Shown here: in pieces, positions 3,748 to 48,601 of the stretch
Position numbering within the stretch: the first letter of the stretch is position 1
How the letters are laid out: every line of letters starts with the position of its first letter
Origin: a virus
Taxonomy: Duplodnaviria > Caudoviricetes
Virus record (IMG/VR): IMGVR_UViG_3300035180_001220
Coordinates: 1-64,000 of that record
DNA length: 64,000 bases
Strand: one strand, 5' to 3'
The notes under the pieces: model-generated
Told to the model about the DNA's origin: nothing
What the model saw: only the letters and a program-made list of their open reading frames with translations
The model's database searches: none
Program-made: the position numbers and the translations under genes

Positions 3748-4407
3748 ATGAAACAGCATTTGATCTATAAAATTACCAACACTCTCAACGGAAGATTTTA
3801 CGTTGGTATGCATACTGGCTTTGAAGATGACAATTACTTTGGTAGTGGTCGTCGAATTAAGGCAGAGATAAAGAAATATGGTAGAGAAAATTTTAAGAAA
3901 GAAATACTTGAAGTTTGCTCTGATAGAAAATCTCTTAAACAAAGAGAAGCAGCAATAGTTAATGAAGAACTTTTGATTGATCCCTTATGTCTTAACCTAA
4001 AGAATGGTGGAGAAGGTGGTGGTAAGTTTAAATCAAAAGAGCATCAGCAAAAATGCACCATTGCTGCAATAGGAACTGGTACTGCAACTCTCAGAAAAAG
4101 ATTACAGGATTCTGCTTATGAAAAACAGTTTAAGCAGAATGTTAGCAATAGTATGAAGGCTTATTATGCTGCAAATCCTCAGATGAAAAGCATAAATCAA
4201 GCGAAGGCAACTGCTGCTTCAAAATCGGTAGCAGTGTCGGAAAAGAGAAAAGAAACATTTGCTAAGATAAAATTCCAGCAAGGGGAAAATAATTCCCAGT
4301 TTGGTGTTAAGCGAATAGGAATAATAAAAGATGGGAAGATCAAAAAAGTTCTTCTTGATCAAGTTCAACTATTTTTAGATGATGGTTGGAAAAGAGGTTT
4401 TAAATAA
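3748..4407 (+). CDS. GIY-YIG (Seg-like) homing endonuclease
   Basis: IYKITN...FYVG..H...YFGSG...ENFKKEILE motif; inserted in the tRNA array. Confidence 0.9.
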   Translation: MKQHLIYKITNTLNGRFYVGMHTGFEDDNYFGSGRRIKAEIKKYGRENFKKEILEVCSDRKSLKQREAAIVNEELLIDPLCLNLKNGGEGGGKFKSKEHQQKCTIAAIGTGTATLRKRLQDSAYEKQFKQNVSNSMKAYYAANPQMKSINQAKATAASKSVAVSEKRKETFAKIKFQQGENNSQFGVKRIGIIKDGKIKKVLLDQVQLFLDDGWKRGFK

Positions 4408-5772: not shown

Positions 5773-5863
5773 GCGAGTGAGACTTGGTAGTCAGAGGAAC
5801 CTTATAAGTTCTTTGCCCCAGATTAGGGCCTTTGAGAGTGTTCGAATCACTCCGCTCGTACCA
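5773..5863 (+). tRNA. tRNA-Ile(TAT) with long variable arm
   Basis: ggaac-CTTATAA-gttct; ACCA. Confidence 0.75.
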
Positions 5864-6440: not shown

Positions 6441-6472
6441 GGGGAGGTAGCTCAGTTGGTTAGAGTGCTGGA
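6441..6472 (+). pseudogene. isolated tRNA 5' half
   Basis: ggggaggTAGCTCAGTTGGTTAGAGTgctgga; no matching 3' half found nearby. Confidence 0.5.
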
Positions 6473-6578
6473 GGAACGAAAAGTTTGAAGATAGTGGGCC
6501 CACCTTGAATCACGGCTACGAGATTTTAAAGATTATTTTCTACCTTATCTATGATATAATAGACTAAGTAAAGATAAT

Positions 6579-6697
6579 GCGGGTATGGTGGAATTGGTAG
6601 ACACACCAGACTTCTACGGAACATCTGCTAACGCGGGTGTTCAAAAAAATTTGGCGGGGGCAACCCCATGCCGGTTCGATTCCGGCTACCCGCACCA
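6579..6697 (+). tRNA. tRNA-Leu(TAA) with 32-nt anticodon insertion (6614-6645)
   Basis: Leu body; removing ctacggaacatctgctaacgcgggtgttcaaa restores ccaga-CTTAAAA-tttgg. Confidence 0.75.
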
Positions 6698-8122: not shown

Positions 8123-8196
8123 AGCTCCATAGCTCAAAAGTAGAGCATACGACTGATAATCGTAAGACCTAGGGGCGGTACCTAGTGGAGCTACCA
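8123..8196 (+). tRNA. tRNA-Ile(GAT)
   Basis: tacga-CTGATAA-tcgta; atypical T loop; ACCA. Confidence 0.8.
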
Positions 8197-9699: not shown

Positions 9700-9820
9700 T
9701 TTTAATTTTGAATGGGACATGAACTCGTAATACGCGAGCTACGCTACCTAGTTAAGCTACCATGCTGGAACTTAACACGCAAAATTATACATTGCAACTT
9801 TGTATAATAGGAGTACAATC

Positions 9821-11371
9821 ATGGCCAAACAAATCGGCACCGTCTCAGAAATTCACGGATACGTTTTAGCAAAATCCCCTAATGGGAATGTACATGCTCT
9901 AAAGGTAGGCGATGCCATTTTTGAGGGTGAAACAATCGTAGCAGGAACTGAAGCATCAATTGCAATCACAGAAGATAATAGTGTTCCACTAATGATTACA
10001 TCTGGACAAACAGTTCTAATTGATGCTAACGTTTTAGGAACATCTTCAGCCCAAGATAGTTCATTACAGCCTGGAACTGCTAATACAGTTATCACAGCAT
10101 TAGATCGTGGTCAAGATTTATCCACTACATTAGATGCAACTGCAGCTGGTCTTGGAGGTGGAGATGCTGCAGGTGAAGGACACAGTTTTGTAGTACTTGG
10201 TCGTATCCTTGAAGGTGTAAGTAGTAATCAATACGCATACGGATTTAATCCTCTAGGTGTTCCAGATGTTCCTCAAGGCATAGGCGAAGTACATTCAGCA
10301 CAAGTAGCTGTGTCTGTACCTCCTGCAGAACCTGTACCTCCTGCAGAACCTGTACCTGTACCTGAGCCTGTTCCTCCAGTTGAGCCTGTACCTGAGCCTG
10401 TTCCTCCAGTTGAGCCTGTACCTACTGTACCTGTACCTGTACCACCAGTTATTCCTGTTCCACCAGTTGAACCTATTCCTGAACCTGAACCTGAACCTGA
10501 ACCTGTACCACCAGTTATACCTGTACCTCCTGTAGAACCTATTCCTGAACCTGTACCACCAGTTATACCTGTACCTCCTGTAGAACCTATTCCTGAACCT
10601 GTACCACCAGTTATACCTGTACCTCCTGTAGAACCTATTCCTGAACCTGTACCACCAGTTATTCCTGTACCTCCTGTTCCACCAGTTATTCCTGTTCCTC
10701 CTGTTCCTCCTGTACCTCCAGTTGACGATAAAGAACATAAGGATAATGGCAGGGGTAACGGAGTAGATGATGCACCAGGTAATAGCGGTAATACAAAGGG
10801 TGATGATGCTGACGGGTCTAATACACCTGGCACAATCGATACATCAGGTGATCACTCACACGTTCCGCCAGCTCAGCCTCCTGGCCGCGCCCTGCATTCT
10901 GCTGATACATCTCACCCGAATAATGATGGTGGTAACGGTGTAGACTCAGCACCAGGTAATAGCGGTAATACAAAGGGTGATGGGGCCGATGGGTCAAATA
11001 CGCCAGGCACAACTACAGATCCGCTGCCAAGTCCTATTCCACCAGTAGATGATACTATTCACAGTAATAGCGGCCACAACAATGGATGGGGTAATGGAGA
11101 TCAAGCTGCCCCTGGAGCCAGCGGACCTGTTAACAATGCAGAGAATAATACATCTGGATTAACTGATCCAAGTCATGGCAATAATGCACTAAATGTTGCT
11201 GATGTTCTTCCACCTGCAGATGATATTGTCCTGCCTGGTAACAGCAATACTGGTGGGCATGGGCATGGGCATGGGCATATTCAGCCAACTATTGATGTCT
11301 GTACGAATCCAGCTGATCAGATTATTGCAGGCCTTGTAAAGAATGCTGCAAATAATGGTCATCACAGCTAA
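9821..11371 (+). CDS. retention-module-containing (T1SS adhesin-like) Pro-rich protein
   Basis: N-terminal LKVGDAIFEGE...LDATAAG...GHSFVVLGRI retention module; PEPVPPV repeats; GNG-rich repeats; C-terminal LNVADVL. Confidence 0.8.
   Translation: MAKQIGTVSEIHGYVLAKSPNGNVHALKVGDAIFEGETIVAGTEASIAITEDNSVPLMITSGQTVLIDANVLGTSSAQDSSLQPGTANTVITALDRGQDLSTTLDATAAGLGGGDAAGEGHSFVVLGRILEGVSSNQYAYGFNPLGVPDVPQGIGEVHSAQVAVSVPPAEPVPPAEPVPVPEPVPPVEPVPEPVPPVEPVPTVPVPVPPVIPVPPVEPIPEPEPEPEPVPPVIPVPPVEPIPEPVPPVIPVPPVEPIPEPVPPVIPVPPVEPIPEPVPPVIPVPPVPPVIPVPPVPPVPPVDDKEHKDNGRGNGVDDAPGNSGNTKGDDADGSNTPGTIDTSGDHSHVPPAQPPGRALHSADTSHPNNDGGNGVDSAPGNSGNTKGDGADGSNTPGTTTDPLPSPIPPVDDTIHSNSGHNNGWGNGDQAAPGASGPVNNAENNTSGLTDPSHGNNALNVADVLPPADDIVLPGNSNTGGHGHGHGHIQPTIDVCTNPADQIIAGLVKNAANNGHHS
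10312..10722 (+). repeat. coding tandem repeats (cctgtacc/ccagtt units encoding PEPVPPVIPVPPVE)
   Basis: Near-perfect 48-nt units at 10500-10660. Confidence 0.9.
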
Positions 11372-11513: not shown

Positions 11514-11604
11514 GGAGTGTAGGCTGGATGGTCAGGCCCTGCAGTTTTAAACCATAGAGCCGCTAATACTGGCTCGCAGGGTTCGACTTCCCGATACTCC
11601 GCCA
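11514..11604 (+). pseudogene. Ser-type tRNA, degenerate anticodon arm (loop reads TTA)
   Basis: ggagtgt/atactcc-GCCA, long V arm, poorly paired anticodon stem. Confidence 0.5.
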
Positions 11605-13147: not shown

Positions 13148-13223
13148 TCCTCAATAGCTCAGTCGGTAGAGCGCCGGACTGTTAATCCGTAGGTCCCTGG
13201 TTCGAGCCCAGGTTGAGGAGCCA
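13148..13223 (+). tRNA. tRNA-Asn(GTT)
   Basis: Canonical host-like cloverleaf, GCCA. Confidence 0.95.
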
Positions 13224-13244: not shown

Positions 13245-14300
13245 ATGTCAAAAGTACTATTCATCTTAAAACGGCGCGAAGACTTCAACAGCGCAATTCA
13301 TACAGCTGAGGGTCTCAGCACTGGGCTTTACAACTCAGCTAGCTTTATGAGGGACATGCTAAATGACAACGGGGTGGAATCAAAGATGGTCGTTGTTATT
13401 GACAACAATGATATCGACCGTGAAGTTACCAAGTATAGACCAACCCACGTTATCATTGAAGCTCTGTGGGTTGTTCCTACTAAGTTCGAAGTTCTCCTGC
13501 GCCTTCACCCAACAGTAAAGTGGATAATTCGTCTCCACAGTGAAATGCCATTCATGGCAGGAGAAGGTATCGCAATGAACTGGATAGGTGATTACTGTTC
13601 CTTTAAGAATGTTATCATTGGAGTTAATGCACCTCGCATGATGAATGAGGTAAATTTCTTCCTTCAGCACAAGTTCGGATGGACGGATGCTGTATCGGCA
13701 GAGAAGGTTATCTACATGCCAAACTTCTACCCGCAACTCTACAAACCAGCTAAGACCATTAACTACGAGTCTGATGTAGTTAATATTGGCTGCTTTGGTG
13801 CTGTCAGACCACTGAAAAATCACCTGGTCCAGGCTGTTGCAGCTCTTAAGTTCGCAAAGAAACACCATAAGAAACTTCGCTTCCACATAAATGCTGGACG
13901 AATCGAAATGAAGGGTGACTCAGTTGTTCACAACCTTACAGCTCTCTTCTCTCACCTCACTGATCTTGGACACGAGCTTATAAACAATCAGTGGACCCCA
14001 AGAGAACAATTCCTTGAGCTCTGTGCAACGATGGACATCGGTATGCAGTGCAACTTCAGTGAAACATTCAACATAGTTGGATGTGATCTGATAAGCCAGG
14101 GAGTACCCCTACTAGGTAGCTCAGAAATTCCATGGTTGAGTAGCGATGCATGGTGTGATCCCACTGAATCAGATATGATTGCTAACAAGCTCAGCGCGAT
14201 CTACGACAACCCATCCGATAATGTAAATAAGAATCAAGCTCTACTAACTAAATACACTAACAATACCGTCAGTGTCTGGGTAGATTATTTCAAAGGATGA
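13245..14300 (+). CDS. GT-B glycosyltransferase (family 1/4-like)
   Basis: GCFGAVRPLKN and SETFNIVGCD...GVP motifs. Confidence 0.8.
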   Translation: MSKVLFILKRREDFNSAIHTAEGLSTGLYNSASFMRDMLNDNGVESKMVVVIDNNDIDREVTKYRPTHVIIEALWVVPTKFEVLLRLHPTVKWIIRLHSEMPFMAGEGIAMNWIGDYCSFKNVIIGVNAPRMMNEVNFFLQHKFGWTDAVSAEKVIYMPNFYPQLYKPAKTINYESDVVNIGCFGAVRPLKNHLVQAVAALKFAKKHHKKLRFHINAGRIEMKGDSVVHNLTALFSHLTDLGHELINNQWTPREQFLELCATMDIGMQCNFSETFNIVGCDLISQGVPLLGSSEIPWLSSDAWCDPTESDMIANKLSAIYDNPSDNVNKNQALLTKYTNNTVSVWVDYFKG

Positions 14301-14764: not shown

Positions 14765-14913
14765 GCAGAATAGGAAAGTATCTGAGGTCGAGAGCCTATT
14801 CCTCAGCGAGACCCCAGCTTAAGCTGAACCACACCAGGCAATTGGAGCCGAAATGTCGTAGCTTTAGTTTTACAGAACACCGCAAATAGTGTATAATTAC
14901 TTATAACGAATTT

Positions 14914-15120: not shown

Positions 15121-15231
15121 GCAACGGTAGCTTAAGTGGTAAAAGCAGTGGACTCTCACGAAGCATCTGCCAACCGGCGGGTGCTTAAGATAATCCACCG
15201 ACATTGGGTTCAAGTCCCAAACGTTGCACCA
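15121..15231 (+). tRNA. tRNA-Met/Ile2(CAT) with 34-nt anticodon insertion (15156-15189)
   Basis: Removing tcacgaagcatctgccaaccggcgggtgcttaag restores gtgga-CTCATAA-tccac (a one-nt shift gives GAT). Confidence 0.7.
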
Positions 15232-15276
15232 TTAATCTCTGGGTTCAAGTCCTGGGTCGCATCAAATAGAAAGAAG

Positions 15277-15700
15277 ATGATGAAACAAATTTTAGGTTTC
15301 AAAGATGAACATAGTTGGCTATCAAACTTCACGCCATGTGAAGTAGAATTTGACGGCGATTTTTTACCCAAGCGTCGAGCATGCACACATTGCCGCAAAA
15401 ACATTTGACCCTGTTTTGCGTCAGCAAATCAAAACACTTCCAACTGGTAAGGCTAAAAGATTCGGGGCAAAGATTACATTGATCCCTGATTGGGATATAA
15501 TAAAACTAAACGTAATGGAGCATTTGCTTAAACAGAAGTTTAGGCAAGAACCATTTAGAACATTGCTTCTTGCAACAGGTGATGCTTATATCGAAGAAAC
15601 AAACTGGTGGAAGGATACTTTCTGGGGTGTTTGTACTGGTGTAGGACAGAACAATTTAGGTAAGATGATAATGGAAATACGAAAGGAAATGTGGTGTTGA
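15277..15700 (+). pseudogene. NADAR (YbiA-like) protein, frameshifted at a T-run near 15360
   Basis: WLSNF in one frame; YPSVEH..AAK...LLATGDAYIEE.NWWKDTFWGVC.G.GQNNLGK in the next. Confidence 0.8.
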
Positions 15701-16119
15701 TTAGTCAAATTAAAGCAGCTCAATTGGCTGCTCGTAAGCTTCGAAATCAAGTAGCAGCTTCTGCTCTTACTACTCTTATTGGTGAAGCTGAAATGGTTGG
15801 TAAGAATGCTGGGCGTGAAGTCACTGATGCAGAAGTTGTAGCAGTGGTTGGTAAGTTCATCAAGAACATCAACGAAACATTGAAGGCATTGCCAGTTAAT
15901 GATGCGCGCTCGTCTGCTTACCTGGAAGAACTTCGTATCTTTGAAGCATTTATGCCCCAACAATTGGATGCGATGCAGCTTGAAATGACTATCGCCGGGA
16001 TCACGGCAGCTGTTGGTAAGAATACGGGAGCCATTATGAAAGAGTTGAAGGCTGGGTTCAGCGGACAATATGATGGCAGGCAAGCATCTGAAATTGTTAA
16101 GCGGCTTGTGGCAGGTTAA
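15691..16119 (+). CDS. GatB/YqeY-like protein
   Basis: TDAEVVAVV...FMPQQL...GAIMKELK...YDG pattern. Confidence 0.8.
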   Translation: MVLISQIKAAQLAARKLRNQVAASALTTLIGEAEMVGKNAGREVTDAEVVAVVGKFIKNINETLKALPVNDARSSAYLEELRIFEAFMPQQLDAMQLEMTIAGITAAVGKNTGAIMKELKAGFSGQYDGRQASEIVKRLVAG

Positions 16120-17598: not shown

Positions 17599-17810
17599 GT
17601 ACATCTGTAAATAACATCACTGGGGATTTGATGCGCACCAAGGGTGCAACCAATGCTTATCGCGCCGGGCATGAGCGAATTTTTGGCGAACGAAAATTCG
17701 TTGAAAAAGAAATGTTCCGTATTAAAGAATGGGTCAAACAATTTGGAGACCCTACTAAAGAAGAATTCGACGAATACATTGCTACTGGAAAGATTAAAGA
17801 CAGATGCTAA
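17595..17810 (+). CDS. hypothetical protein
   Basis: NNITGD...AYR.G.ERIF pattern. Confidence 0.6.
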   Translation: MSTSVNNITGDLMRTKGATNAYRAGHERIFGERKFVEKEMFRIKEWVKQFGDPTKEEFDEYIATGKIKDRC

Positions 17811-18688
17811 TCAAGACTCTCCCCGTTAACTTGCTAGGTCGCGATTACGTTTGCGGGGATATTCACGGGTCCTATACTCGTGTGATGCAGTTTTTGGCGC
17901 ATGTAGATTTCGATAAGACTAAGGATAGACTTATCTGTGCTGGTGATTTGATCGATCGCGGTCCAGAGAATGAGCAGTGCTTGCATTTGCTCTATGAGCC
18001 ATGGTTTGAATGCGCTATGGGCAATCACGAGTGGATGATGGTCGATAGCTTTAAGCATGGCGGGCTTGATTATGGCATGGCATGGCTAAATCATGGTGGC
18101 ATGTGGGCTAGAGATTATATCTCTGAACCTTCTAATGTGGGAGCATTTGTTCGCGGGGCTGTAGAAGATAAGATGCAGCATCTGCCTTTTTTGCTAACTG
18201 TTCCTATGGCAAATGGAAAGAAGTTCCACGTTCTGCATGCAGAAATTTATTATGACGAGCATCTCACTGATGCAAATATGACTGACGAATATTTGATGAA
18301 ACAAATAATGACACGTCAGACATATGATGGTGATGTAGTTTTATGGGGTCGTAAATACTTTATCCGTTTTTACGATACGACCCTAGATGATAGAGTGATA
18401 GATAAGTTTAGAAAGAGTTTGACCCTGGACAATAAAACTCTGGGCTCATTGTTTAACTCTGGATTATCTCACATCTATTCTGGCCATACTATTGTAAGAG
18501 AGCCTATCCAGTTTATGGGACAGACGAATCTTGATACAATGGCTTATGGCAGTTATCCTAGTGATAGCCGATATGGAGCAGTTGAACCACCAGCATGGTG
18601 CGGGTTAACTGTTACTGAACCTAAAACAGACACATTCTGGCATGTTAGCCAGAATGGTGTTAAAGAAATTAAACCTGTAGTAATTTGA
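17804..18688 (+). CDS. Ser/Thr protein phosphatase (NinI-like metallophosphoesterase)
   Basis: GDIHG, GDLIDRG, GNHE, GHT motifs. Confidence 0.9.
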   Translation: MLIKTLPVNLLGRDYVCGDIHGSYTRVMQFLAHVDFDKTKDRLICAGDLIDRGPENEQCLHLLYEPWFECAMGNHEWMMVDSFKHGGLDYGMAWLNHGGMWARDYISEPSNVGAFVRGAVEDKMQHLPFLLTVPMANGKKFHVLHAEIYYDEHLTDANMTDEYLMKQIMTRQTYDGDVVLWGRKYFIRFYDTTLDDRVIDKFRKSLTLDNKTLGSLFNSGLSHIYSGHTIVREPIQFMGQTNLDTMAYGSYPSDSRYGAVEPPAWCGLTVTEPKTDTFWHVSQNGVKEIKPVVI

Positions 18689-33653: not shown

Positions 33654-33728
33654 CCCTAGGGAGCATACTGGCCATGTAATCGGCTGATAACCGATAGACA
33701 GTGAGTTCGATTCTCACACTAGGGACCA
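33654..33728 (+). tRNA. tRNA-Ile(GAT)
   Basis: atcgg-CTGATAA-ccgat; ACCA. Confidence 0.78.
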
Positions 33729-35925: not shown

Positions 35926-36390
35926 ATGAAGTTGTTTGAAATTGCAAAACAGAAACCGATGTTCACCATGGTTATTGGTGGTGCAGGTTCTGGCAAGAAC
36001 TACTTCATAGAGAACAATCCAAAACTTAAGCGCACTAAGTGCATCGATGTAGACGAGATTAAGAAACATGTCTCATTAGATACAGCAATTAAGCAAGTAA
36101 AGATTGATCTAGAAGCTGCCTTCAAGAAAGGCGAAGACGTTGTTCACCCTACTACTGGCTCTAATCTAAAAGGTCAGCAGAACAAAATTGCATTAGCTAA
36201 AGAATATGGCTATGCTATCACACTTATCCTCAAAGACACTCCCCTAGAACAAGCTCTCAAGAATGTAAAGAAGAGAGCTGAAGGTGGTGGGCATGATGTG
36301 TTAGAGAAGGATATCGTTGCATCTAATGAGAAAGCTCGCGCTAACTACAAAGAGCTTTCACCATTGGCTGACACATCAAAGATTCTCTAA
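35926..36390 (+). CDS. P-loop kinase (zeta-toxin/AAA_33-like) with MKLFEI leader
   Basis: GGAGSGKN Walker A; DVDEI; RAEGGGHDV. Confidence 0.8.
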   Translation: MKLFEIAKQKPMFTMVIGGAGSGKNYFIENNPKLKRTKCIDVDEIKKHVSLDTAIKQVKIDLEAAFKKGEDVVHPTTGSNLKGQQNKIALAKEYGYAITLILKDTPLEQALKNVKKRAEGGGHDVLEKDIVASNEKARANYKELSPLADTSKIL

Positions 36391-36673: not shown

Positions 36674-37057
36674 TTGGCTAGTACATTGCAAAACACATAT
36701 AGAATTTTAGATGATGACCACAAAGAAATCGTAAGGATGATTCTCAGTCTAATAGATACGGCAGACTTGCATGCTGTTACTCAAAAATTAGAACCGCTCA
36801 AGGCTAAATTTACAGAGCATTTTGAAGCAGAAGAAGCAATAATGTCTGCTATCGCGTATCCATATCTTGAGTACCACAATCACAGTCATTTTCACTTATC
36901 AGATTACTTGAATCTAATTCAGATTAGTTCTAGTTTTACGAGTATTAAATTCATGTTAAAAGAACTGCTAACACAATTCGCAAGGCATGCAGATTTATCT
37001 CTTCATCGAGAAGAAACATGTAAAGCATTAACCAGTTTTCATAAATTAAAACTCTAA
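36674..37057 (+). CDS. hemerythrin-like protein (C-terminus possibly degraded)
   Basis: DDDH, HFEAEE..M...YP...H...H. Confidence 0.75.
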   Translation: MASTLQNTYRILDDDHKEIVRMILSLIDTADLHAVTQKLEPLKAKFTEHFEAEEAIMSAIAYPYLEYHNHSHFHLSDYLNLIQISSSFTSIKFMLKELLTQFARHADLSLHREETCKALTSFHKLKL

Positions 37058-37092
37058 GTATAATATAACCCTATAGATGATAGGGGTATGTT

Positions 37093-37476
37093 ATGTCTCC
37101 AGAGCAATTTAAGCACTACATGATGGGTGACCCTAAATATGATGCTGAGCATTATATGCTGTTTCAAACTATAAATGCATATAGAGCTTTAGACAATCCT
37201 ACGCATGAACAAGCTGATACAGCATTACGGGAAATTTTCGAAGCATTTACAAATCACGTGGCAGAAGAAGAAGCGTATATGGAAGCTACAGATTTCCCAT
37301 ATTTAGCATATCATCGAGAGATGCACACGTCGTTGCTGAAACAGTTGCAGCATTATATATTACATCAGCATTTTCATGCAGCGCTAGTTAAGTCTGAGCT
37401 CTATGATTTCAGTATTGCATTTGCGCATCATATTGATGAAGCTGATAGGCAATTTTACGATCTTCATAAACAATAA
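37093..37476 (+). CDS. hemerythrin-like protein
   Basis: DAEH, HVAEEE.YM...FPY..YH..MH, HHIDEAD. Confidence 0.85.
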   Translation: MSPEQFKHYMMGDPKYDAEHYMLFQTINAYRALDNPTHEQADTALREIFEAFTNHVAEEEAYMEATDFPYLAYHREMHTSLLKQLQHYILHQHFHAALVKSELYDFSIAFAHHIDEADRQFYDLHKQ

Positions 37477-41881: not shown

Positions 41882-42164
41882 GGTAACCTTTGCGGAAATT
41901 GATAGCTTATTTATGTTAATCTGATCAACCCAGTTTATTTTGACAGGTTGAAATGTTATAATTTACTCAGATAATAAATCTGACTGGAGCCTGAATGGAT
42001 TTTGCAGTAGATTTTATCAACGGAATTAGTCTTGGAGCAGAGTATGTTCCAGCTGAGAGTGATGATGAAGTTAATACTTTCATCATCGATATTGTGTTAT
42101 TAAGATTGTTGTTTCAGTGGGAGTGAAACAGTTGTGGCAGGTAACTGAAATAGGAGAAATGAAA

Positions 42165-42734
42165 ATGGCAAAGATTCTGCAACTCGACATCAACGGTCAG
42201 CCTAACGAATGGATTTCGTGGCAAGATGCTGCTGTGTACCATGCTAAGGGACTTGTCTCTTGGTCATTGGGCGAGTATGAAACAGTAATCCGTGGTGGTA
42301 ATAACCGCATTACTGGAGAACAATCCATTATCAAGACTTCTTCCATCATTGCTGTTAAGGGTGCTATTGGTAAGAGACGTCATCGTATCCCTGCTTTGAA
42401 CAACACTGAGCTGTTCCGTAGAGACCGTTGCACGTGTGCTTACTGTGGTCAGGTGTTCTCTGAACACAAGCTTACCCGTGACCACATCATCCCACGTTAC
42501 TTGAAGGGTCAAGATGTTTGGATGAATGTTGTAACTTGCTGCTCGAAGTGTAACCAGAAGAAGGACTGCAAGACTCTTGAAGAAGCTGGCATGACGTTGC
42601 TTTACGCTCCATACGTTCCATCTAAGGCAGAACATTTGATCCTCGCAAATAGAAATGTACTAGCAGATCAAATGGAGTTCCTTATGGCATTCGTTCCTGC
42701 AAACTCAAGACTTAGAACAGAACTTATACATTAA
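42165..42734 (+). CDS. McrA-like HNH endonuclease
   Basis: LFRRDRCTCAYCG...LTRDHIIP..GQD.W.NVVTCC..CN. Confidence 0.9.
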   Translation: MAKILQLDINGQPNEWISWQDAAVYHAKGLVSWSLGEYETVIRGGNNRITGEQSIIKTSSIIAVKGAIGKRRHRIPALNNTELFRRDRCTCAYCGQVFSEHKLTRDHIIPRYLKGQDVWMNVVTCCSKCNQKKDCKTLEEAGMTLLYAPYVPSKAEHLILANRNVLADQMEFLMAFVPANSRLRTELIH

Positions 42735-42854
42735 AATTTTAAAACTGTACAGCGTGTGAACTCGGTGATCACTTAGAAATAAGAAAATTTGAACCTTTGG
42801 TGCAAATTGAACAGATGGCTTAGGGTGCAGTTTGAACTTTATATTAAGCAGTTG

Positions 42855-42908
42855 ATACCTTCAGCAGAAGAACCTCTAGCAATAGGAGTTCTTCTGCTGA
42901 AGGTATTG
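42855..42908. terminator. strong intergenic hairpin
   Basis: ataccttcagcagaagaac/gttcttctgctgaaggtat inverted repeat. Confidence 0.6.
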
Positions 42909-42963
42909 AATAAAGTATTGTTTATTGGACATAATGGAATTTTTGAATTAAACTGGAGATAGA

Positions 42964-43485
42964 ATGAAAGAAATTGATCCTCGTATGGAGCGTGTTTTGA
43001 CTGGACAGCTCAAAGCCACATTTATCAATTCTATCTTAGCACTTATCATTTCATTTGGGTCAGTATTTTACTTTTGGGATTTTGGAATTGAGAACTTTAT
43101 TGCAGGCGCAATTGCTGCATTTGCGCTGAATAAGCTTCTCAATCTAATTACTCTAACATACTTCCAATATAAGAACTATGCTGGAAAATTTAATGAAATG
43201 ATTGAAGATGCTGCACGTGCATCTGAATTAATTTCAAGCTATGACCCATCTAAAGAAGATAAAGGTCCTCAGCTTCAGCAGTTGTCTGTGACTATCATGG
43301 GCACACCAGAGAAAACTATCGGTAGATACATGGATACAGAGTTCTATGAATGGCTTTCTATTAAGGGGGCCGATGATAAGTTGATTAAAGTTGTTTTCAC
43401 TGGAACAATCTCTCTTGAGAATGGAGATATCCCTCCACCAAACAGCATCGTTATTCCACCTGGGTTGATTTATCAGGTTGAGTAG
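42964..43485 (+). CDS. membrane protein
   Basis: Two N-terminal TM segments. Confidence 0.65.
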   Translation: MKEIDPRMERVLTGQLKATFINSILALIISFGSVFYFWDFGIENFIAGAIAAFALNKLLNLITLTYFQYKNYAGKFNEMIEDAARASELISSYDPSKEDKGPQLQQLSVTIMGTPEKTIGRYMDTEFYEWLSIKGADDKLIKVVFTGTISLENGDIPPPNSIVIPPGLIYQVE

Positions 43486-43552
43486 TTATAAATAAAATTA
43501 CTATTTCATCAGTTTACACCCTCTTAGTTGCAGGGTATAATAAATGAAATTA

Positions 43553-43643
43553 AACGAATTAGACAAAACCGGCCGTTGATAGTTTATCTTTAAATATAAA
43601 CCACTATTGACAATTCATTAGTTTTTCTATTCTCTGATTCGTT
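43553..43643 (+). ncRNA. Y-RNA-like module upstream of Ro60
   Basis: Follows a promoter; aacgaattaga/tctgattcgtt stem, AACCGG..gttgatagTTTATC/actattgac. Confidence 0.6.
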
Positions 43644-43653
43644 CAATAAACCC

Positions 43654-44011
43654 TTTGCATTAACGCTATTTTAGCCCTCCTAACCGGAGGCTGTTGGTTA
43701 ACACTACTATGTAATCTACTATGTAGAGCTTATCGGTACGCCAGTTGAAAGACAAGCCATCTTTAAGATATGTGCTCATGCAGACTACATGAGAGAGGGA
43801 TTCCTTACCCTGGACCAATACGGGAATATTTCTGGTAGAAACCAGATATTTGTAAGATTGAATAACTTAGATAGGAAATCCAACCGATAAATTGGATGTA
43901 GGTCCATTATAGTTTAGCTGGTTCTGAAGGGAATTTCATGTTAAGCATTTTTGGTACTGAAATACCCAACTCCAAACATTTGTTGAAGGGTTAAAATAAC
44001 GTTAATGCGAA
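43654..44011 (+). ncRNA. unclassified ~360-nt structured RNA directly upstream of Ro60
   Basis: ~25-bp terminal stem tttgcattaacgctattttagccct/agggttaaaataacgttaatgcgaa; many internal hairpins; no ORF. Confidence 0.6.
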
Positions 44012-44054
44012 ACTTTGCTATAATACTGTAGCCGCTCTTATAAAGGAAATTAAA

Positions 44055-45668
44055 ATGTTTTTCTACGCAAACACGATGTCTACCACGCCAGCTAAGGTTG
44101 TTACCCCACAGACCGAGGCTATCCCTGGCCGCGAGGCCGATATGGCACAGAATAATGCTGGCGGTGTCGTCTTTAAGATGGACGAGTGGGCCTATCTTGA
44201 CCGCTTTTTAATTTTGGGAAGTGCGACTCCATCTTACTACGCTTCTGCCCAGAAGTTGACGAAGGATGCTGCAAAGAATGTATTGGCTTGCATCGCTGCA
44301 AACGGCGTACAAACAGTAGAGAAGATTGTTGAAATCTCCCAGGCTGGGCGTGCTCCAAAGAACGACCCCGCGGTGTTTGCTCTTGCACTTTGTGCAATTA
44401 GCAAGGATGCTGAAACCGTTTCTGCTGCTTATGCCGCTCTGCCAAAGGTCGCCCGTACGGGCACCCACCTTTTCCAATTCGTTGCTGCTTTGGATGAGCT
44501 TGGTAAGTGGAATGCTGCTGCAAAGCGTGGTATTGCCGCGTGGTACACTAAGCGCAACGAAGACCGTTTGGCAATGCAGTTGATGAAGTATCAGTCCCGC
44601 AATGGATGGTCTCACCGTGACGTCTTGCGTCTTGCTCACGTTAAGCCAGGAAATGAACTTCAGAGTAACATGTTCCGATATGTTGTAAAGGGTGCAGATG
44701 CAATTGAACAAGGTCAGGCAATGCCACAGACCATGATCGATTACGAAATGCTGAAGCGTAACCCAGATCAGAAGACTGCTCTGCGCATCATCGCAGACAA
44801 CAAGGACTTCACGTGGGAAATGATGCCTACTGAATTGCATAAGAACAAGGCAGTAATGTCTGCTCTTATCCCTAACATGGGTATGACCGCGCTTATTCGT
44901 AAGCTTGGTGCTTTGACTGCGGCTGGAGTTATCGCTCCTTTGTCTTCGGACTTGAAGGCTGTTGTTGCTAAGCTGAAGGATGCTGATACCATCAAGGCAG
45001 CTCGTGTACACCCAATCACGATCTTGTCTGCTCTTCGCCAGTACTCTTTGGGTCATGGTGATAAGGGTAGCTTGACTTGGACTGCTAACCAAGCTGTTGT
45101 AGATGCTTTGAACGATGCATTTTACGATGCATTCGAGTTCATCCCAACTACTGGACAGGGTTACTTGTTTGGTATGGATATTTCTGGTTCCATGTTCAGT
45201 TCTCAAGTATCTGGTACGCCGGGAATGACTGCTGCAGAAGTATCTGCTTGTATGGCACTTGCTGTCGCTAAGCGCGAAAGCAACTACGAAATGTTCGGCT
45301 TCGACACACGTCCAAAGCCATTGAAGATTTCTCCAAGCATGCGTTTGGACGGTGTTATCAAGGCTATGCGAGACCTACGCTGGTCTGGGGGCGGTACTGA
45401 TTGTTCTTTGCCAATGACCTACGCTATTGATAACAAGATTAGCGGAGTAGATAAGTTCTGCATCTACACCGACAGCGAGACCTATGCAGGTCATATGCAG
45501 CCTGTGCAAGCCTTGGCGCAGTACCGTGCTAAGTTCAGCAAGAACGCGAAGTTGATTGTTTGCGGAACCTCCGTAACCAACTTTACCATTGCTGACCCTA
45601 AGGATCCAGGAATGTTGGACGTAGTTGGATTTGATTCTTCTGTACCACAGTTGATTCAGTCCTTCTGA
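44055..45668 (+). CDS. rsr: Ro60/Rsr TROVE-vWA RNA-binding protein
   Basis: NNAGG..F, RFLILGS, KYQSRNGWSHRD.LRLAH, vWA DISGSM, GGTDC, YTDSET, DVVGFD. Confidence 0.95.
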   Translation: MFFYANTMSTTPAKVVTPQTEAIPGREADMAQNNAGGVVFKMDEWAYLDRFLILGSATPSYYASAQKLTKDAAKNVLACIAANGVQTVEKIVEISQAGRAPKNDPAVFALALCAISKDAETVSAAYAALPKVARTGTHLFQFVAALDELGKWNAAAKRGIAAWYTKRNEDRLAMQLMKYQSRNGWSHRDVLRLAHVKPGNELQSNMFRYVVKGADAIEQGQAMPQTMIDYEMLKRNPDQKTALRIIADNKDFTWEMMPTELHKNKAVMSALIPNMGMTALIRKLGALTAAGVIAPLSSDLKAVVAKLKDADTIKAARVHPITILSALRQYSLGHGDKGSLTWTANQAVVDALNDAFYDAFEFIPTTGQGYLFGMDISGSMFSSQVSGTPGMTAAEVSACMALAVAKRESNYEMFGFDTRPKPLKISPSMRLDGVIKAMRDLRWSGGGTDCSLPMTYAIDNKISGVDKFCIYTDSETYAGHMQPVQALAQYRAKFSKNAKLIVCGTSVTNFTIADPKDPGMLDVVGFDSSVPQLIQSF

Positions 45669-45735
45669 GTAAACGCAAGTTTACTCCCCCTAAAGGGATA
45701 GAGTATAATGAACTCTATCCCCTTTTGTGGTTTGT

Positions 45736-45999
45736 ATGAAATTCCGAATCGACTTTAAAGACCCCGACGCTCTTAACATTCATCAAATTGCAAATGATTG
45801 TCTCTTTGCTGATAAAGATGAGGCGTGGGAAGAAGGTTTCGCTAATCTAAGTTCTGTTCAGCGAAAAGAAATTCTTGATGAGGTGAAGGAATCAATCAAG
45901 GAATTTCTCGATCAATGGATGCGGTACAGTGAATACATCACTGTTGAATTTAACATGGACACGAAGACAGCTATGGTTGTCCCGCTGATAAGCCAATGA
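45736..45999 (+). CDS. hypothetical protein
   Basis: MKFRIDFKDPD...EYITVEF pattern. Confidence 0.6.
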   Translation: MKFRIDFKDPDALNIHQIANDCLFADKDEAWEEGFANLSSVQRKEILDEVKESIKEFLDQWMRYSEYITVEFNMDTKTAMVVPLISQ

Positions 46000-46520
46000 A
46001 AATCTTTAGCATGATTTGTGCCGTCTCTTTAGACGGTATTATCGGTGATACAGAAATAAATGCTATCCCGTGGTATCTTCCATCTGACTTGAAGCATTTC
46101 AAGGAAGTAACATTAGGCAAGACTGTTGTAATGGGTTCAAGAACCTATCGAAGCATTGGTAAGGCTCTACCCAATCGGCACAATGTTGTTATCAGTAGAA
46201 CTCCTTTCGTTGAGGAGGGTGTTAATGTTATCTACCGTGGCTTCAATGAAGTCTATCGATATGAGCCAGAAGGTTTCTTTGTTATAGGTGGAGAACATAT
46301 CTACGCTGAAGCCCTGAAGCATTCGCCCATGACATTGTACATCACTATTGTTAAGATGACTCCTGACGGTGATGTTCGCTTCCCTATAGCAGGAAGAAGA
46401 TTCATGCAGGATGAAGTTACAACTTCGACTGGCTTGAAGTATAATTGCATAAGCCGTTCTGAATGGCAAAAGGAAAATGAAATTGAATTCCAGCATACCG
46501 TCTTTAGGCTAGCATCTTAG
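45996..46520 (+). CDS. folA: dihydrofolate reductase
   Basis: IPW.LPSDLKHFK..T.G..VVMG.RTY.SI..LP.R.N; VIGG..IY. Confidence 0.93.
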   Translation: MKIFSMICAVSLDGIIGDTEINAIPWYLPSDLKHFKEVTLGKTVVMGSRTYRSIGKALPNRHNVVISRTPFVEEGVNVIYRGFNEVYRYEPEGFFVIGGEHIYAEALKHSPMTLYITIVKMTPDGDVRFPIAGRRFMQDEVTTSTGLKYNCISRSEWQKENEIEFQHTVFRLAS

Positions 46521-46757
46521 TGACTCGAATACCAAGATAAAAATCTTTGAAATTTTTACTCCTCTATTATAAAATGTGGCATATTTAAATTTATTTTCTG
46601 TGCACCATGTAGATAATGATCTTACTATTATCGTGGGCTCTCCAGATTGGAATTCTATTTGTCAGTCGCATGCCCGCACTTTATTTTTACATCGATACCC
46701 AATGTAAAAATGATTAGTTATTTTATGGGTAAGCTTATAGACGTAGGGATAGTTCAT
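46520..46757 (-). pseudogene. internally deleted GIY-YIG endonuclease remnant
   Basis: MNYPYVYKLTHKITNHFYIGYR then a stop. Confidence 0.6.
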
Positions 46758-46758
46758 T

Positions 46759-47337
46759 ATGAATTTAGGTAAAACGATAAGAGTATTCATAGATTGTGAG
46801 TTCACTGACTTCATGAACTCGGATCTTATCTCTATTGGCCTCGCTGCTGACAATGGGGATGAATTCTATGGTGAGAATTCCGAGTTCATCAGACCGTGGG
46901 CCACTGACTTTGTAAAGAAAACAGTTTACCCGCTACTTACTCCTGAAAAATGCGCCTACCGGCGCATCGAGCTTTCAGCTCGTGTCTGGAGTTGGATAGA
47001 GGAACTTCCAGCAGAATTTGTAATTATCACTGCTGACTACAAGACTGATCTTGAACTGCTGGTAAAGCTCTTTGACGAGGATGTTCACCCAAAGATTCTT
47101 GAAATGCAGAACATCTTCAACAACATCTACTATGCGTGTGATGCACATACGACAGCGATGGGTGGTTCTAGTGATGATTACGATATGCTTAAGACGAGAG
47201 TAAAATCAAAATATGAGCTCTATCACATGGACTACTTCTTTCGCACGAAGGAACTCCCGCACCATGCTCTGTCAGATGCAAGGGCAAACAGAGAAGCCTA
47301 CACGAAAATCATTAACGAGTTTGGACTGCCACGATGA
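46759..47337 (+). CDS. DEDD 3'-5' exoribonuclease (Rv2179c-like)
   Basis: FIDCEFTD, LISIGL, HHALSDA. Confidence 0.82.
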   Translation: MNLGKTIRVFIDCEFTDFMNSDLISIGLAADNGDEFYGENSEFIRPWATDFVKKTVYPLLTPEKCAYRRIELSARVWSWIEELPAEFVIITADYKTDLELLVKLFDEDVHPKILEMQNIFNNIYYACDAHTTAMGGSSDDYDMLKTRVKSKYELYHMDYFFRTKELPHHALSDARANREAYTKIINEFGLPR

Positions 47338-47741
47338 ATTTTTTTAACCGCAAATTGAGCAGTGACGCTTTCACCAGCCTGATTGATGCTAGCACTACAG
47401 TGGAAGGAAATGTTTCCTTCTCAGGAATATTAAAGATTCAGGGTGTCTTTAATGGTGATATAATTAGAAAAACATCTGAAGACAAAGAGTGCTTGATAAT
47501 CACGAATGAAGGTAGAGTATCAAGCAACAAGGTAAATGTTTTCGACGCTGTTATTTCGGGTAATCTCACTGCAGAATGTCTTTGGGTTGAATCTACTCTT
47601 AGGATTACGGCTAACGCAGTAATCAATGCAAAGCAAATCTACTACCGGATTTTAGAGATAGAGCCCGGTGCCAAGATTACTGGTCAAATGCTTCACCTGG
47701 ACATGAGCAGCGTCGGTGAAGCGATTGACTCAGTGATGTAA
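47334..47741 (+). CDS. bactofilin (polymer-forming cytoskeletal protein)
   Basis: SLI...TVEGNV.F.G.L.I.G...G.I...LEIEPGAKI.G. Confidence 0.85.
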   Translation: MNFFNRKLSSDAFTSLIDASTTVEGNVSFSGILKIQGVFNGDIIRKTSEDKECLIITNEGRVSSNKVNVFDAVISGNLTAECLWVESTLRITANAVINAKQIYYRILEIEPGAKITGQMLHLDMSSVGEAIDSVM

Positions 47742-48001
47742 ATAATGCATTAGCAGCAACAAGTCCTGGGTCGCTGTATCTACGTTTCATCCGCTGAGAA
47801 GACTCTTCAGTGCGTGAAGTTCCTTTGGGTGGGGCTATGATGTTCAACTGATGCAGGTGGATGAGAATGGTTATCAGACCCTGATATGCAAGGTGTAACG
47901 GTGTTTCACAAAGTAACCCCAATTTTGTTACTTTGTTACCAAAATAACTGTTTACTTTTGTCAGGTCATGGTGTATAATCTTAATATCTAAAGACAAAAG
48001 G

Positions 48002-48601
48002 ATGATGAAAATGAACAAGCTCTCAGCTATCGTGTTGGCAATCGCTGCATTTTCAGCGAACGCTCAGACAGTAAACTCAAATGGCACTTACAACTACGTG
48101 CCAAACGCTGCTGAACGAGTTCCTGATGGCGCTTCTGGTCCAGGAATTGTTTACACCCAGCGAACAACCGGCACCATCATTTCTGTTGGTGCTCCTGTCT
48201 ACAAGAATGTTACAGTCGGGCAGATTTGTAATCAACCTCAACCTCAATATCACCAGCAGCAGAACGGTTCTGCCTTGAATATGGGCACCGTTATCGGTGG
48301 TATTGCTGGCGCAATCGTTGGTAATCAAGTTGGTGGACGTGGCGATGGAAAGACTGCTGCTACTGCATTGGGAGCTGTCACTGGAGCTTTTGTTGGAAAT
48401 AACATGAACCAACAGTCAAATGTTCAGCCACAATACCAGCAAGGAACTGGTTGCCAACTTCAATTCGAACCGCAATTGGTTGGATATTACTACACAGTCC
48501 AATATCAGCATCTTCAAATGCAGGGATTCATGGCTCGACTACCACAAGTTGGTGAAACTGCTGAAGTTATTATTCGCAGTACCTTCTACGCAGCACAGTA
48601 A
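48002..48601 (+). CDS. glycine-zipper 2TM protein (YcfJ-like)
   Basis: Signal peptide; GTVIGGIAGAIVGNQVGG..GK.AATALGAVTG. Confidence 0.88.
   Translation: MMKMNKLSAIVLAIAAFSANAQTVNSNGTYNYVPNAAERVPDGASGPGIVYTQRTTGTIISVGAPVYKNVTVGQICNQPQPQYHQQQNGSALNMGTVIGGIAGAIVGNQVGGRGDGKTAATALGAVTGAFVGNNMNQQSNVQPQYQQGTGCQLQFEPQLVGYYYTVQYQHLQMQGFMARLPQVGETAEVIIRSTFYAAQ

Follow-up and report, generated by a model that had tools for sequence, protein, structure and literature searches.

Two homologous hairpin inserts between nucleotides 34 and 35 of phage tRNA genes as candidates for a tiny tRNA intron

Two tRNA genes in the first 64 kb (64,000 nucleotides, here called the window) of the 112,303-base viral record IMGVR_UViG_3300035180_001220, about 32% complete according to CheckV, are interrupted in their anticodon loops by short hairpin sequences. 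The gene at 15121 carries an insert of 34 nucleotides (nt) and a tRNA-Leu(UAA) gene at 6579 one of 32 nt (Table 1). The two inserts are homologous to each other and occupy the identical register between tRNA nucleotides 34 and 35; both tRNA bodies are intact, the hairpins are strand-specific, and precise removal of the inserts restores the anticodon loops. Judged from the letters and from the comparisons below, the inserts resemble a tiny intron of an as yet undescribed kind. The explanation favoured here, with a probability of about 0.4, is that they are copies of one mini-intron, excised at the RNA level by a protein and sealed by a ligase, at position 34/35 of tRNA-Leu(UAA) and of a tRNA with the anticodon CAU.

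The gene at 15121 is matched by the tRNA model of Rfam (RF00005) over 15121-15228 with 46.3 bits, above the gathering threshold of 29 bits, and the surplus letters form one gap, located in the anticodon loop. With ARAGORN, the gene is found only if introns are allowed. The two strands of its anticodon stem, GTGGA (15148-15152) and TCCAC (15194-15198), enclose 41 nt instead of the usual 7, namely CTC, the insert, and ATAA. The composition of the insert and the split of C^AT agree to the base with what the original prediction had described. For the precursor, the fold of minimum free energy is a cloverleaf (z -3.6), in which the anticodon stem is predicted to be followed by a 3x3 loop, two pairs, a 3x2 loop, and then the hairpin.

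The register was fixed on the Leu gene. In its Rfam match (6579-6694), a local gap within the anticodon loop corresponds to the insert, and of 623 tRNAs of related phages, those that match the gene best are intron-less Leu(taa) genes, in which ...GACTT is joined straight to AAAATCT. In a blastn search of GenBank phages, 54 records match the first 35 nt of the gene, mostly annotated as tRNA-Leu, and none covers 80% or more of it; among the matches listed, homology ends at or before query nucleotide 35, which corresponds to U34. Sliding of the boundaries yields the anticodons AAA, TAA, TCA, and TCT. Because of the homology to leucine tRNAs, and because only TAA reads leucine, the insert is placed between nucleotides 34 and 35 with the flanks CTT/.../AAAA, and its exact removal restores the loop of the intron-less homologues. 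The label Arg(tct) given by ARAGORN is a product of the insertion site assumed by that program. Homology thus fixes the register of the Leu gene independently, and the claim that two unrelated tRNA bodies (one of type I, the other a type II Leu tRNA) contain the same element at an identical register is borne out. No second Leu(taa) tRNA was found among 37 ARAGORN and 36 Rfam calls. Of the 1863 leucine codons in 72 long open reading frames (ORFs), 305 are TTA, a figure without bearing on the question.

If the rule of the Leu copy, a 5-nt leader and a 3-nt tail, is applied to the gene at 15121, the loop reads CTC/.../ATAA and the anticodon CAT, which would denote a tRNA of the elongator Met or Ile2 type. 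Moving the boundary 1 nt to the left gives GAT, 1 nt to the right CTT, and CTC is the label of ARAGORN. Ile-GAT, mentioned in the original prediction, can indeed be obtained by a one-nucleotide shift but is disfavoured, as it needs leader and tail lengths other than those of the Leu copy and two GAT tRNAs (8123-8196 and 33654-33728) are already present in the window, besides one CTC and one CTT tRNA. The sole other CAT tRNA of the window (33731) shows a C1.A72 mismatch, which is typical of bacterial initiators. CAT is thus the favoured reading: it keeps to the register of the Leu copy, GAT, CTC, and CTT tRNAs exist already, the other CAT tRNA is initiator-like, and Met(cat) is the closest of the four readings. 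Ranked by body likeness, the top 25 of 390 distinct intron-less tRNAs include seven Phe, six Met(cat), three Lys(ttt), and one Ile(gat), and neither Glu(ctc) nor Lys(ctt); in whole-gene alignments, the best single match is Lys(ttt) with 53.4 vs. 49.2 for Met(cat). Body likeness alone is not diagnostic, as Phe and Lys(ttt) score as well as Met(cat). The loop halves CTC/.../ATAA are also seen in Met(cat) tRNAs of relatives.

Both inserts show a common plan, consisting of a leader NNACG, a stem of 10-11 bp, a 4-nt loop, and a tail AAR. Their alignment contains 24 invariant columns out of 34; over the 32 aligned positions, 24 are identical and 8 have diverged, while all 10 shared pairs have been kept. 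Unchanged are the ACG just 5' of the stem, the stem core CATCTGC/GCGGGTG (14 nt), and the AA 3' of the stem, in line with the kinship originally predicted. The shared pairs are standard in both copies, eight of them being invariant (two of these are U.G in both) and two, at the base of the stem, being altered on both sides (GAAC/GTTC vs. AAGC/GCTT, i.e. A-U/G-C and G-C/A-U). The 34-nt copy harbors one additional C-G pair under the loop, and the terminal loops are unlike (TAAC in the 6614 copy, AACC in the 15156 copy). In the proposed pairing register, 100% of the cells are paired, compared to 30-50% in shifted registers. The pattern CATCTGCN{3,8}GCGGGTG occurs twice in the window, with 0.00 expected and none of 100 shuffles giving two or more; in the whole record, the core pattern is also found twice, both times inside tRNA genes. 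On the tRNA strand, the hairpins reach -18.1 kcal/mol (z -5.4; 15156) and -14.6 kcal/mol (z -6.1; 6614), and none of 200 shuffles was as stable. On the opposite strand they are weak (-9.4 kcal/mol, z -0.9, and -6.8 kcal/mol, z -2.8, respectively), since G.U turns into C.A there. As far as predicted folding energies go, this asymmetry argues for a structure used in the RNA of the tRNA's own strand and not for a DNA palindrome.

According to the favoured explanation, the pre-tRNA would fold as a normal cloverleaf with its anticodon arm prolonged by the hairpin. The conserved core of the hairpin, CAUCUGC/GCGGGUG, contains two G.U pairs and has ACG and AA as its flanks; a protein endonuclease would recognise it and would cut within the unpaired joints on both sides of the stem, at a distance of 5 nt on the 5' side and 3 nt on the 3' side. 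The 7-nt anticodon loop would then be resealed by an RNA ligase of the kind used in phage RNA repair (Rnl1 or Rnl2), aided by end-healing enzymes where required. We infer the occurrence of removal, the enzymes, and the cut sites from several features. A removed intervening sequence is favoured because the tRNA bodies are intact, the loop halves are exact, the tRNAs are non-redundant, the hairpin is kept and strand-specific, and its upper stem is invariant. Removal would need a nuclease and a ligase, because 32-34 nt cannot self-splice; the conserved hairpin would be the obvious recognition element and phage ligases of the Rnl type the obvious sealers. A precedent exists in tRNA genes of Lak megaphages, whose conserved introns are called 'enigmatic' in a passage of PMC6784885.

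Anticodon-loop inserts recur in this phage group, to judge from the related sequences, with differing sequences and sites. With introns allowed, ARAGORN flagged 5 of the 623 tRNAs of 80 IMG/VR loci; for 80 loci from metagenomes the count was 3 of 276, and these three repeat contigs of the first set, so that unrelated inserts would be present in about 1% of the relatives' tRNAs. Three further ARAGORN intron calls (L131 11531-11743, L132 3943-4150, and L132 13669-13768) are apparent false positives and were disregarded. A tRNA model run over ten related records gave 157 + 119 matches, of which 150 + 119 were listed; among the matches listed, only three tRNAs are longer than 95 nt, one each in the records G006, G001, and G004 (Table 1). 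At its base (AAGCA...TGCTT with AA behind it), the hairpin in the tRNA-Gly of G006 is similar to the 15156 hairpin, and in the predicted precursor (locus L134) the anticodon stem is lengthened to 8 bp. Its removal restores the loop of intron-less homologues as well, but at 35/36 or 36/37 and not at 34/35. The insert of about 90 nt in G004 has the 8-mer GGCGGGTG in common with the 3' strand of the 15156 hairpin. Among the related loci examined, no insert-less alleles of the interrupted tRNAs of L134 and L131 were found.

ATP-dependent RNA ligases are encoded by two of these relatives, G001 (Rnl2-type, PF09414, 99.8 bits) and G004 (T4 Rnl1-type, PF09511, 108.5 bits, at 289451-290032). Both genomes are near-complete and harbor an interrupted tRNA, whereas near-complete G002 has neither ligase and, among the matches listed, no interrupted tRNA; this co-occurrence in three near-complete genomes is suggestive. 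KptA was not found above the cut-off in any of five records. Some candidates for the processing enzymes were tried and rejected. None of the neighboring proteins (a 523-aa ORF, a 351-aa ORF, an AAA_33 kinase, and a phosphoesterase of the lambda/PrpA phosphatase type at 17804-18688) ties to the inserts. If RNase P or RNase Z treated the hairpin as a minihelix and cut it, the exon would retain the 5-nt leader, and after excision by RNase III no ligatable 7-nt loop would remain.

Several results weigh against the proposed excision and ligation. To our knowledge, no enzyme system of bacteria or phages excises such an insert. In five records, our own and those of four relatives, neither RtcB (PF01139) nor a tRNA-splicing endonuclease (PF01974) was detected, and no RNA ligase was found in the 112-kb record, which covers about 32% of the genome. 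The ligase link rests on three genomes, and RNA ligases are common in jumbo phages anyway, according to a section of PMC7824862. Further copies in related phages, whose absence the original prediction had named beforehand, together with a lack of processing, as refuting it, were not found: in 1.29 Mb of DNA (the record and 80 related loci, 86 sources), a covariance model of the two inserts recovered only the two seed sequences at E<=10. A loose pattern hit at least 120 loci in IMG/VR, and among the matches listed all are coding sequence or unrelated hairpins; an ACG-anchored version hit 46 loci there, none with four of four basal pairs. In GTDB (one genome for each of 185,579 species), a tighter pattern gave 45 loci, of which none has four and nine have three of the four basal pairs, and none lies in a tRNA (ARAGORN -i). 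Among the matches listed, the hits of these pattern scans are regarded as due to chance, none of them having an intact basal stem or a location within a tRNA. In GenBank phages, the blastn matches were confined to the 5' exon of the Leu gene, with nothing for the CAT gene and no homologue of the insert. The restriction of this family to two copies, as far as these sequence searches reach, counts against a widespread element; the tiny mobile element that had been suggested is possible, with the two copies as its sole support. Compensatory changes had also been claimed for the basal pairs. Two pairs do differ on both sides, but this covariation of two pairs in two sequences is not significant, as 121 of 500 shuffles reach as much. 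The search of sequencing runs for the stretch returned four DNA runs, as contigs from microbial mat and sediment, and no RNA run. The gene at 15121 contains a G7.A66 mismatch (ARAGORN), tRNA debris accumulates in the region, with fragments beside both interrupted genes, and the intact loops could reflect insertion in the recent past.

This last point leads to the notion that the two genes are dead. A selfish hairpin element, acting on DNA or single-stranded DNA with a preference for ...GACTY/A..., may have inactivated two tRNA genes that are never spliced. Such an event would fit recent insertions, and the 5' flank of both inserts is GACTY. Phage tRNAs are usually dispensable, there are two copies only and no known splicing machinery, tRNA fragments lie at ~6441-6475 and ~15237-15264, and the region contains genes for homing endonucleases of the GIY-YIG and HNH types. 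We nevertheless consider inactivation less likely than removal. The tRNA bodies and loop halves are intact despite the divergence of 8 of 32 insert positions, both insertions are located exactly at tRNA 34/35 and nowhere else in 112 kb, and the hairpin is strand-asymmetric with conserved G.U pairs. No target-site duplications exist at either insert, and a Y1 transposase (IS200/IS605/REP-type, PF01797) was found in none of four records. REP-type elements occur in many copies, mostly intergenic, together with a Y1 transposase; a palindromic element of the REP/IS200-IS605 kind was rejected, as the two copies known here both reside in tRNA genes.

The hairpin might also be retained. In that case, the gene product would be a tRNA-scaffolded small RNA, in which a tRNA chassis processed by RNase P and RNase Z shows a decoy or ligand to a host or phage protein, e.g. 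a hairpin-binding defence nuclease, similar to engineered tRNA scaffolds or to tRNA-like Y RNAs working with Ro60. Apart from the exact loop halves, the features listed in favour of removal would suit such a molecule as well. An invariant upper stem of 14 nt with a variable periphery is expected of a protein-binding site, the chimera is predicted to form a cloverleaf with a protruding helix, and the 8-mer mentioned above recurs in the G004 insert. The phage moreover encodes a Ro60 homologue at 44055-45668 (TROVE E 4.7e-35, Ro60 vWA E 3.5e-53), and bacterial Ro60 partners with tRNA-like RNAs, as outlined in a part of PMC7824862 that reviews the RNA-repair inventories of jumbo phages, Ro60 included. 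A scaffold has, however, no need for correct anticodon-loop halves, yet the Leu body keeps T/.../AA. The terminal loops differ, and no Rfam family, CRISPR repeats and Y RNA included, matches the inserts at E<=10; around the Ro60 gene (42500-48500), neither Y RNA nor another Rfam family matches at E<=1 except chance miRNA-like matches. On balance, a retained hairpin appears less likely than removal by cutting and ligation, and about as likely as dead genes.

A comparison with known introns touches on self-splicing. The longest of the introns described in 10.1101/2020.01.27.920355 measures 1817 bp, and 50 bp was the lower limit for keeping an Aragorn call there. The Leu insert interrupts the anticodon loop after U34, exactly at the Leu.3 site, where the group I introns of bacterial tRNA-Leu(UAA) classically reside (CUU/a...g/AAAA). 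CAU tRNAs of bacteria host group I introns as well (10.1101/2020.01.27.920355), and G is the last letter of the 15156 copy. Self-splicing or self-cleavage, be it by a degenerate group I intron or by a small ribozyme of a new kind, is nonetheless very improbable. Neither copy combines the U before the intron with the terminal G of group I introns: the Leu copy follows U and ends in A, the CAT copy follows C and ends in G. Group I introns comprise a catalytic core (P3-P9) of roughly at least 200 nt. They extend over hundreds of nucleotides, whereas 32-34 nt in a plain hairpin leave no room for such a core. Intron_gpI had no match at gathering score in the window and none at E<=10 on the insert loci, small self-cleaving ribozymes (hammerhead, hairpin, twister, and others) had none at E<=10 on L121, L122, L203, and L204, and over the inserts themselves no Rfam family, the CRISPR-DR families among them, was matched at E<=10. 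Likeness to a CRISPR repeat family would be the mark of a solitary CRISPR repeat serving as an RNA anti-CRISPR.

Protein-spliced introns of archaea and eukaryotes resemble the inserts in their length of tens of nucleotides, their location in the anticodon arm, the extension of the stem as a helix, and the need for an endonuclease and a ligase. In that system, a bulge-helix-bulge (two 3-nt bulges, 4 bp apart) is cut by the EndA/Sen endonuclease and RtcB or Trl1 serves as ligase. The insertion site differs (37/38 vs. 34/35 here), and the virus looks bacterial (CCA, initiator-like tRNA with C1.A72, T4-like genes). A bulge-helix-bulge was rejected, as the predicted fold has 3x3 and 3x2 loops 2 bp apart and pairing by hand in the registers 34/35 and 37/38 gave no 4-bp central helix. 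Bacterial 23S rRNA harbors intervening sequences, small hairpins of sporadic occurrence that are removed by RNase III and whose flanking pieces are not religated. Both kinds are small hairpin insertions in a gene for a stable RNA, and those of 23S rRNA are excised after transcription, but a tRNA cut in its anticodon would be useless without religation. The inserts of Lak megaphages likewise occur in anticodon loops of phage tRNAs, are sporadic among relatives, conserved where present, and enigmatic in mechanism; in contrast to ours, they stem from another phage group and habitat and were mapped with eukaryote settings, and one may encode a tRNA (as stated in passages of PMC6784885). In repair of the T4 type, PrrC cleaves the anticodon loop, followed by Pnkp and Rnl1, according to sections of PMC7824862 and PMC9503650. 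That pathway offers enzymes that seal anticodon-loop breaks, and ligases of the Rnl1 and Rnl2 types are present in G004 and G001; it rejoins one break, however, while here two cuts and the loss of 32-34 nt would be required. Full-text literature searches yielded no paper on hairpin inserts at 34/35 of phage tRNAs, phage tRNA introns being on record only as the 'enigmatic' Lak features in the passage of PMC6784885 cited above.

Contigs of all four DNA runs, from four studies, contain the inserted form without any difference inside either gene. One of these runs represents a slightly different strain, departing from the window at 6517 and 14974. Although the record is a metagenomic contig and three of the four runs with the stretch may be its source, an assembly or sequencing artefact is scarcely credible, since all four runs bridge both genes without differences and two homologous, non-identical copies exist 8.5 kb apart. 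No joint skipping 6614-6645 or 15156-15189, as expected of intron-less alleles, was seen among the 15 of 22 joints listed; those touching the tRNAs carry foreign letters from tRNAs of other organisms. Relatives of the neighboring 351-aa marker reach at most 68% protein identity, so no close-strain allele with or without insert is available for comparison. What probability the readings discussed leave over belongs to something else, not yet conceived.

Table 1. Coordinates of the interrupted tRNA genes, their inserts, and other features (positions in the window unless a related record is named).
Feature	Position	Strand	Evidence or remarks
tRNA gene with interrupted anticodon loop and encoded CCA	15121..15231	+	Rfam RF00005, ARAGORN -i, fold
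34-nt insert between tRNA nt 34/35: leader TCACG, 11-bp stem, loop AACC, tail AAG	15156..15189	+	letters, fold, alignment; tcacg 15156-15160, aagcatctgcc 15161-15171, aacc 15172-15175, ggcgggtgctt 15176-15186, aag 15187-15189
Hairpin proper, core CATCTGC/GCGGGTG with two G.U	15161..15186	+	strand 15161-15171, loop 15172-15175, strand 15176-15186
tRNA-Leu(UAA) with the sister insert; type II with a long variable arm, encoded CCA	6579..6697	+	Rfam 46.2 bits, homology
32-nt sister insert between nt 34/35: leader CTACG, 10-bp stem GAACATCTGC/GCGGGTGTTC, loop TAAC, tail AAA	6614..6645	+	letters, homology, fold
Promoter-like site TTTACA-17-TATAAT, 11/12, ~225 nt upstream of the 15121 tRNA	14869..14897	+	consensus match only
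GIY-YIG homing endonuclease	3748-4407		
HNH homing endonuclease	42117-42734		
tRNA-Gly(GCC), 28-nt hairpin insert	G006:111816-111915 = L134 4261-4363		
tRNA with 46-nt insert	G001:126886-127002		anticodon arm ill-defined
tRNA, Thr-TGT or Pro-TGG by boundary choice, ~90-nt three-hairpin insert	G004:137750-137909 = L203	-	333-kb phage

The gene content suggests that the record is a fragment of a T4-like jumbo phage of bacteria with a genome of about 350 kb; relatives found via the 351-aa gene reach 326-354 kb. It includes a T4 beta-glucosyltransferase, both topoisomerase II subunits, thymidylate synthase and a second enzyme of that family, SegE-type GIY-YIG and HNH endonucleases, PnuC, several GNAT acetyltransferases, tail-fibre proteins, and the Ro60/TROVE-vWA protein. 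The host is probably a bacterium, given the encoded CCA ends and the initiator-like tRNA. As for transcription of the gene at 15121, the promoter-like site in Table 1 is one of two found, vs. 1.8 expected in shuffles.

The surroundings of the two genes show some further peculiarities. The fragment after the CCA of the 15121 gene consists of a T-arm and a 3' acceptor-like part, the one 100 nt before the 6579 gene of the acceptor, D-arm, and 5' anticodon stem; such pieces beside both genes suggest frequent rearrangement of the tRNA region. Directly 3' of the 15121 tRNA, a NADAR-domain gene is split over two frames (15277-15700), owing to a frameshift, a sequencing error, or its being a pseudogene; its first 43 codons lie at 15277-15408 and profile positions 35-163 at 15350-15700 (Pfam E 1.4e-15). 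NADAR domains are tied by context to phage RNA repair in a portion of PMC9503650. Two genes past the tRNA, 15691-16119 encodes a YqeY-like protein (GatB/YqeY domain, Pfam E 3.2e-14) of a family akin to a tRNA-binding domain. The 351-aa protein (13245-14300) belongs to no Pfam or PHROG family. It has counterparts with 60-68% identity in at least 155 IMG/VR and 373 metagenome stretches and, in the loci examined, is usually located in or beside tRNA arrays. The 523-aa ORF (9800-11371) between tRNA genes has proline-rich PVPPVEP-type repeats and Gly/Asn/Asp-rich stretches and no family match. ARAGORN also calls two 91-nt tRNAs with long variable arms and odd anticodon stems below the gathering score of the Rfam tRNA model, tRNA-Ile(tat) at 5773-5863 and tRNA-Stop(tta) at 11514-11604; the latter, if real, would be ochre-suppressor-like. 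For the tRNA-Asn(GTT) gene at 13148-13223, the summed contig depth exceeds 2000 in each of the four runs, compared to ~10-30 around it; the gene shares 95% identity with part of a Ralstonia phage, and evidently abundant organisms have its sequence as well. Farther away, a weak P-loop kinase ORF (AAA_33, 27.5 bits) is located at 35926-36390, and two adjacent hemerythrin-domain ORFs of 127 aa each (36674-37476) lie just past the second tRNA cluster.

Splicing of tRNAs with the help of proteins is considered to be characteristic of archaea and eukaryotes. It is tentatively proposed, with still less assurance than the excision and sealing as such, that the inserts could represent a new class of tRNA introns in a bacterial virus, neither self-splicing nor of the bulge-helix-bulge type, in which a hairpin with a G.U core would be read by a dedicated endonuclease, excised at 34/35, and the loop resealed by a phage repair ligase. 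If this intron class is real, enzymes of jumbo phages denoted as 'RNA repair' would be part of a true splicing pathway. If both tRNAs mature, the bacterial virus or its host must possess an unrecognised cut-and-ligate pathway. Many phage RNA ligases and end-healing enzymes would then have a housekeeping role beyond repair, and the 'enigmatic' introns of other huge phages would find an explanation. If the hairpin stays instead, the genes would specify a natural tRNA scaffold displaying a small RNA, likewise undescribed in phages.

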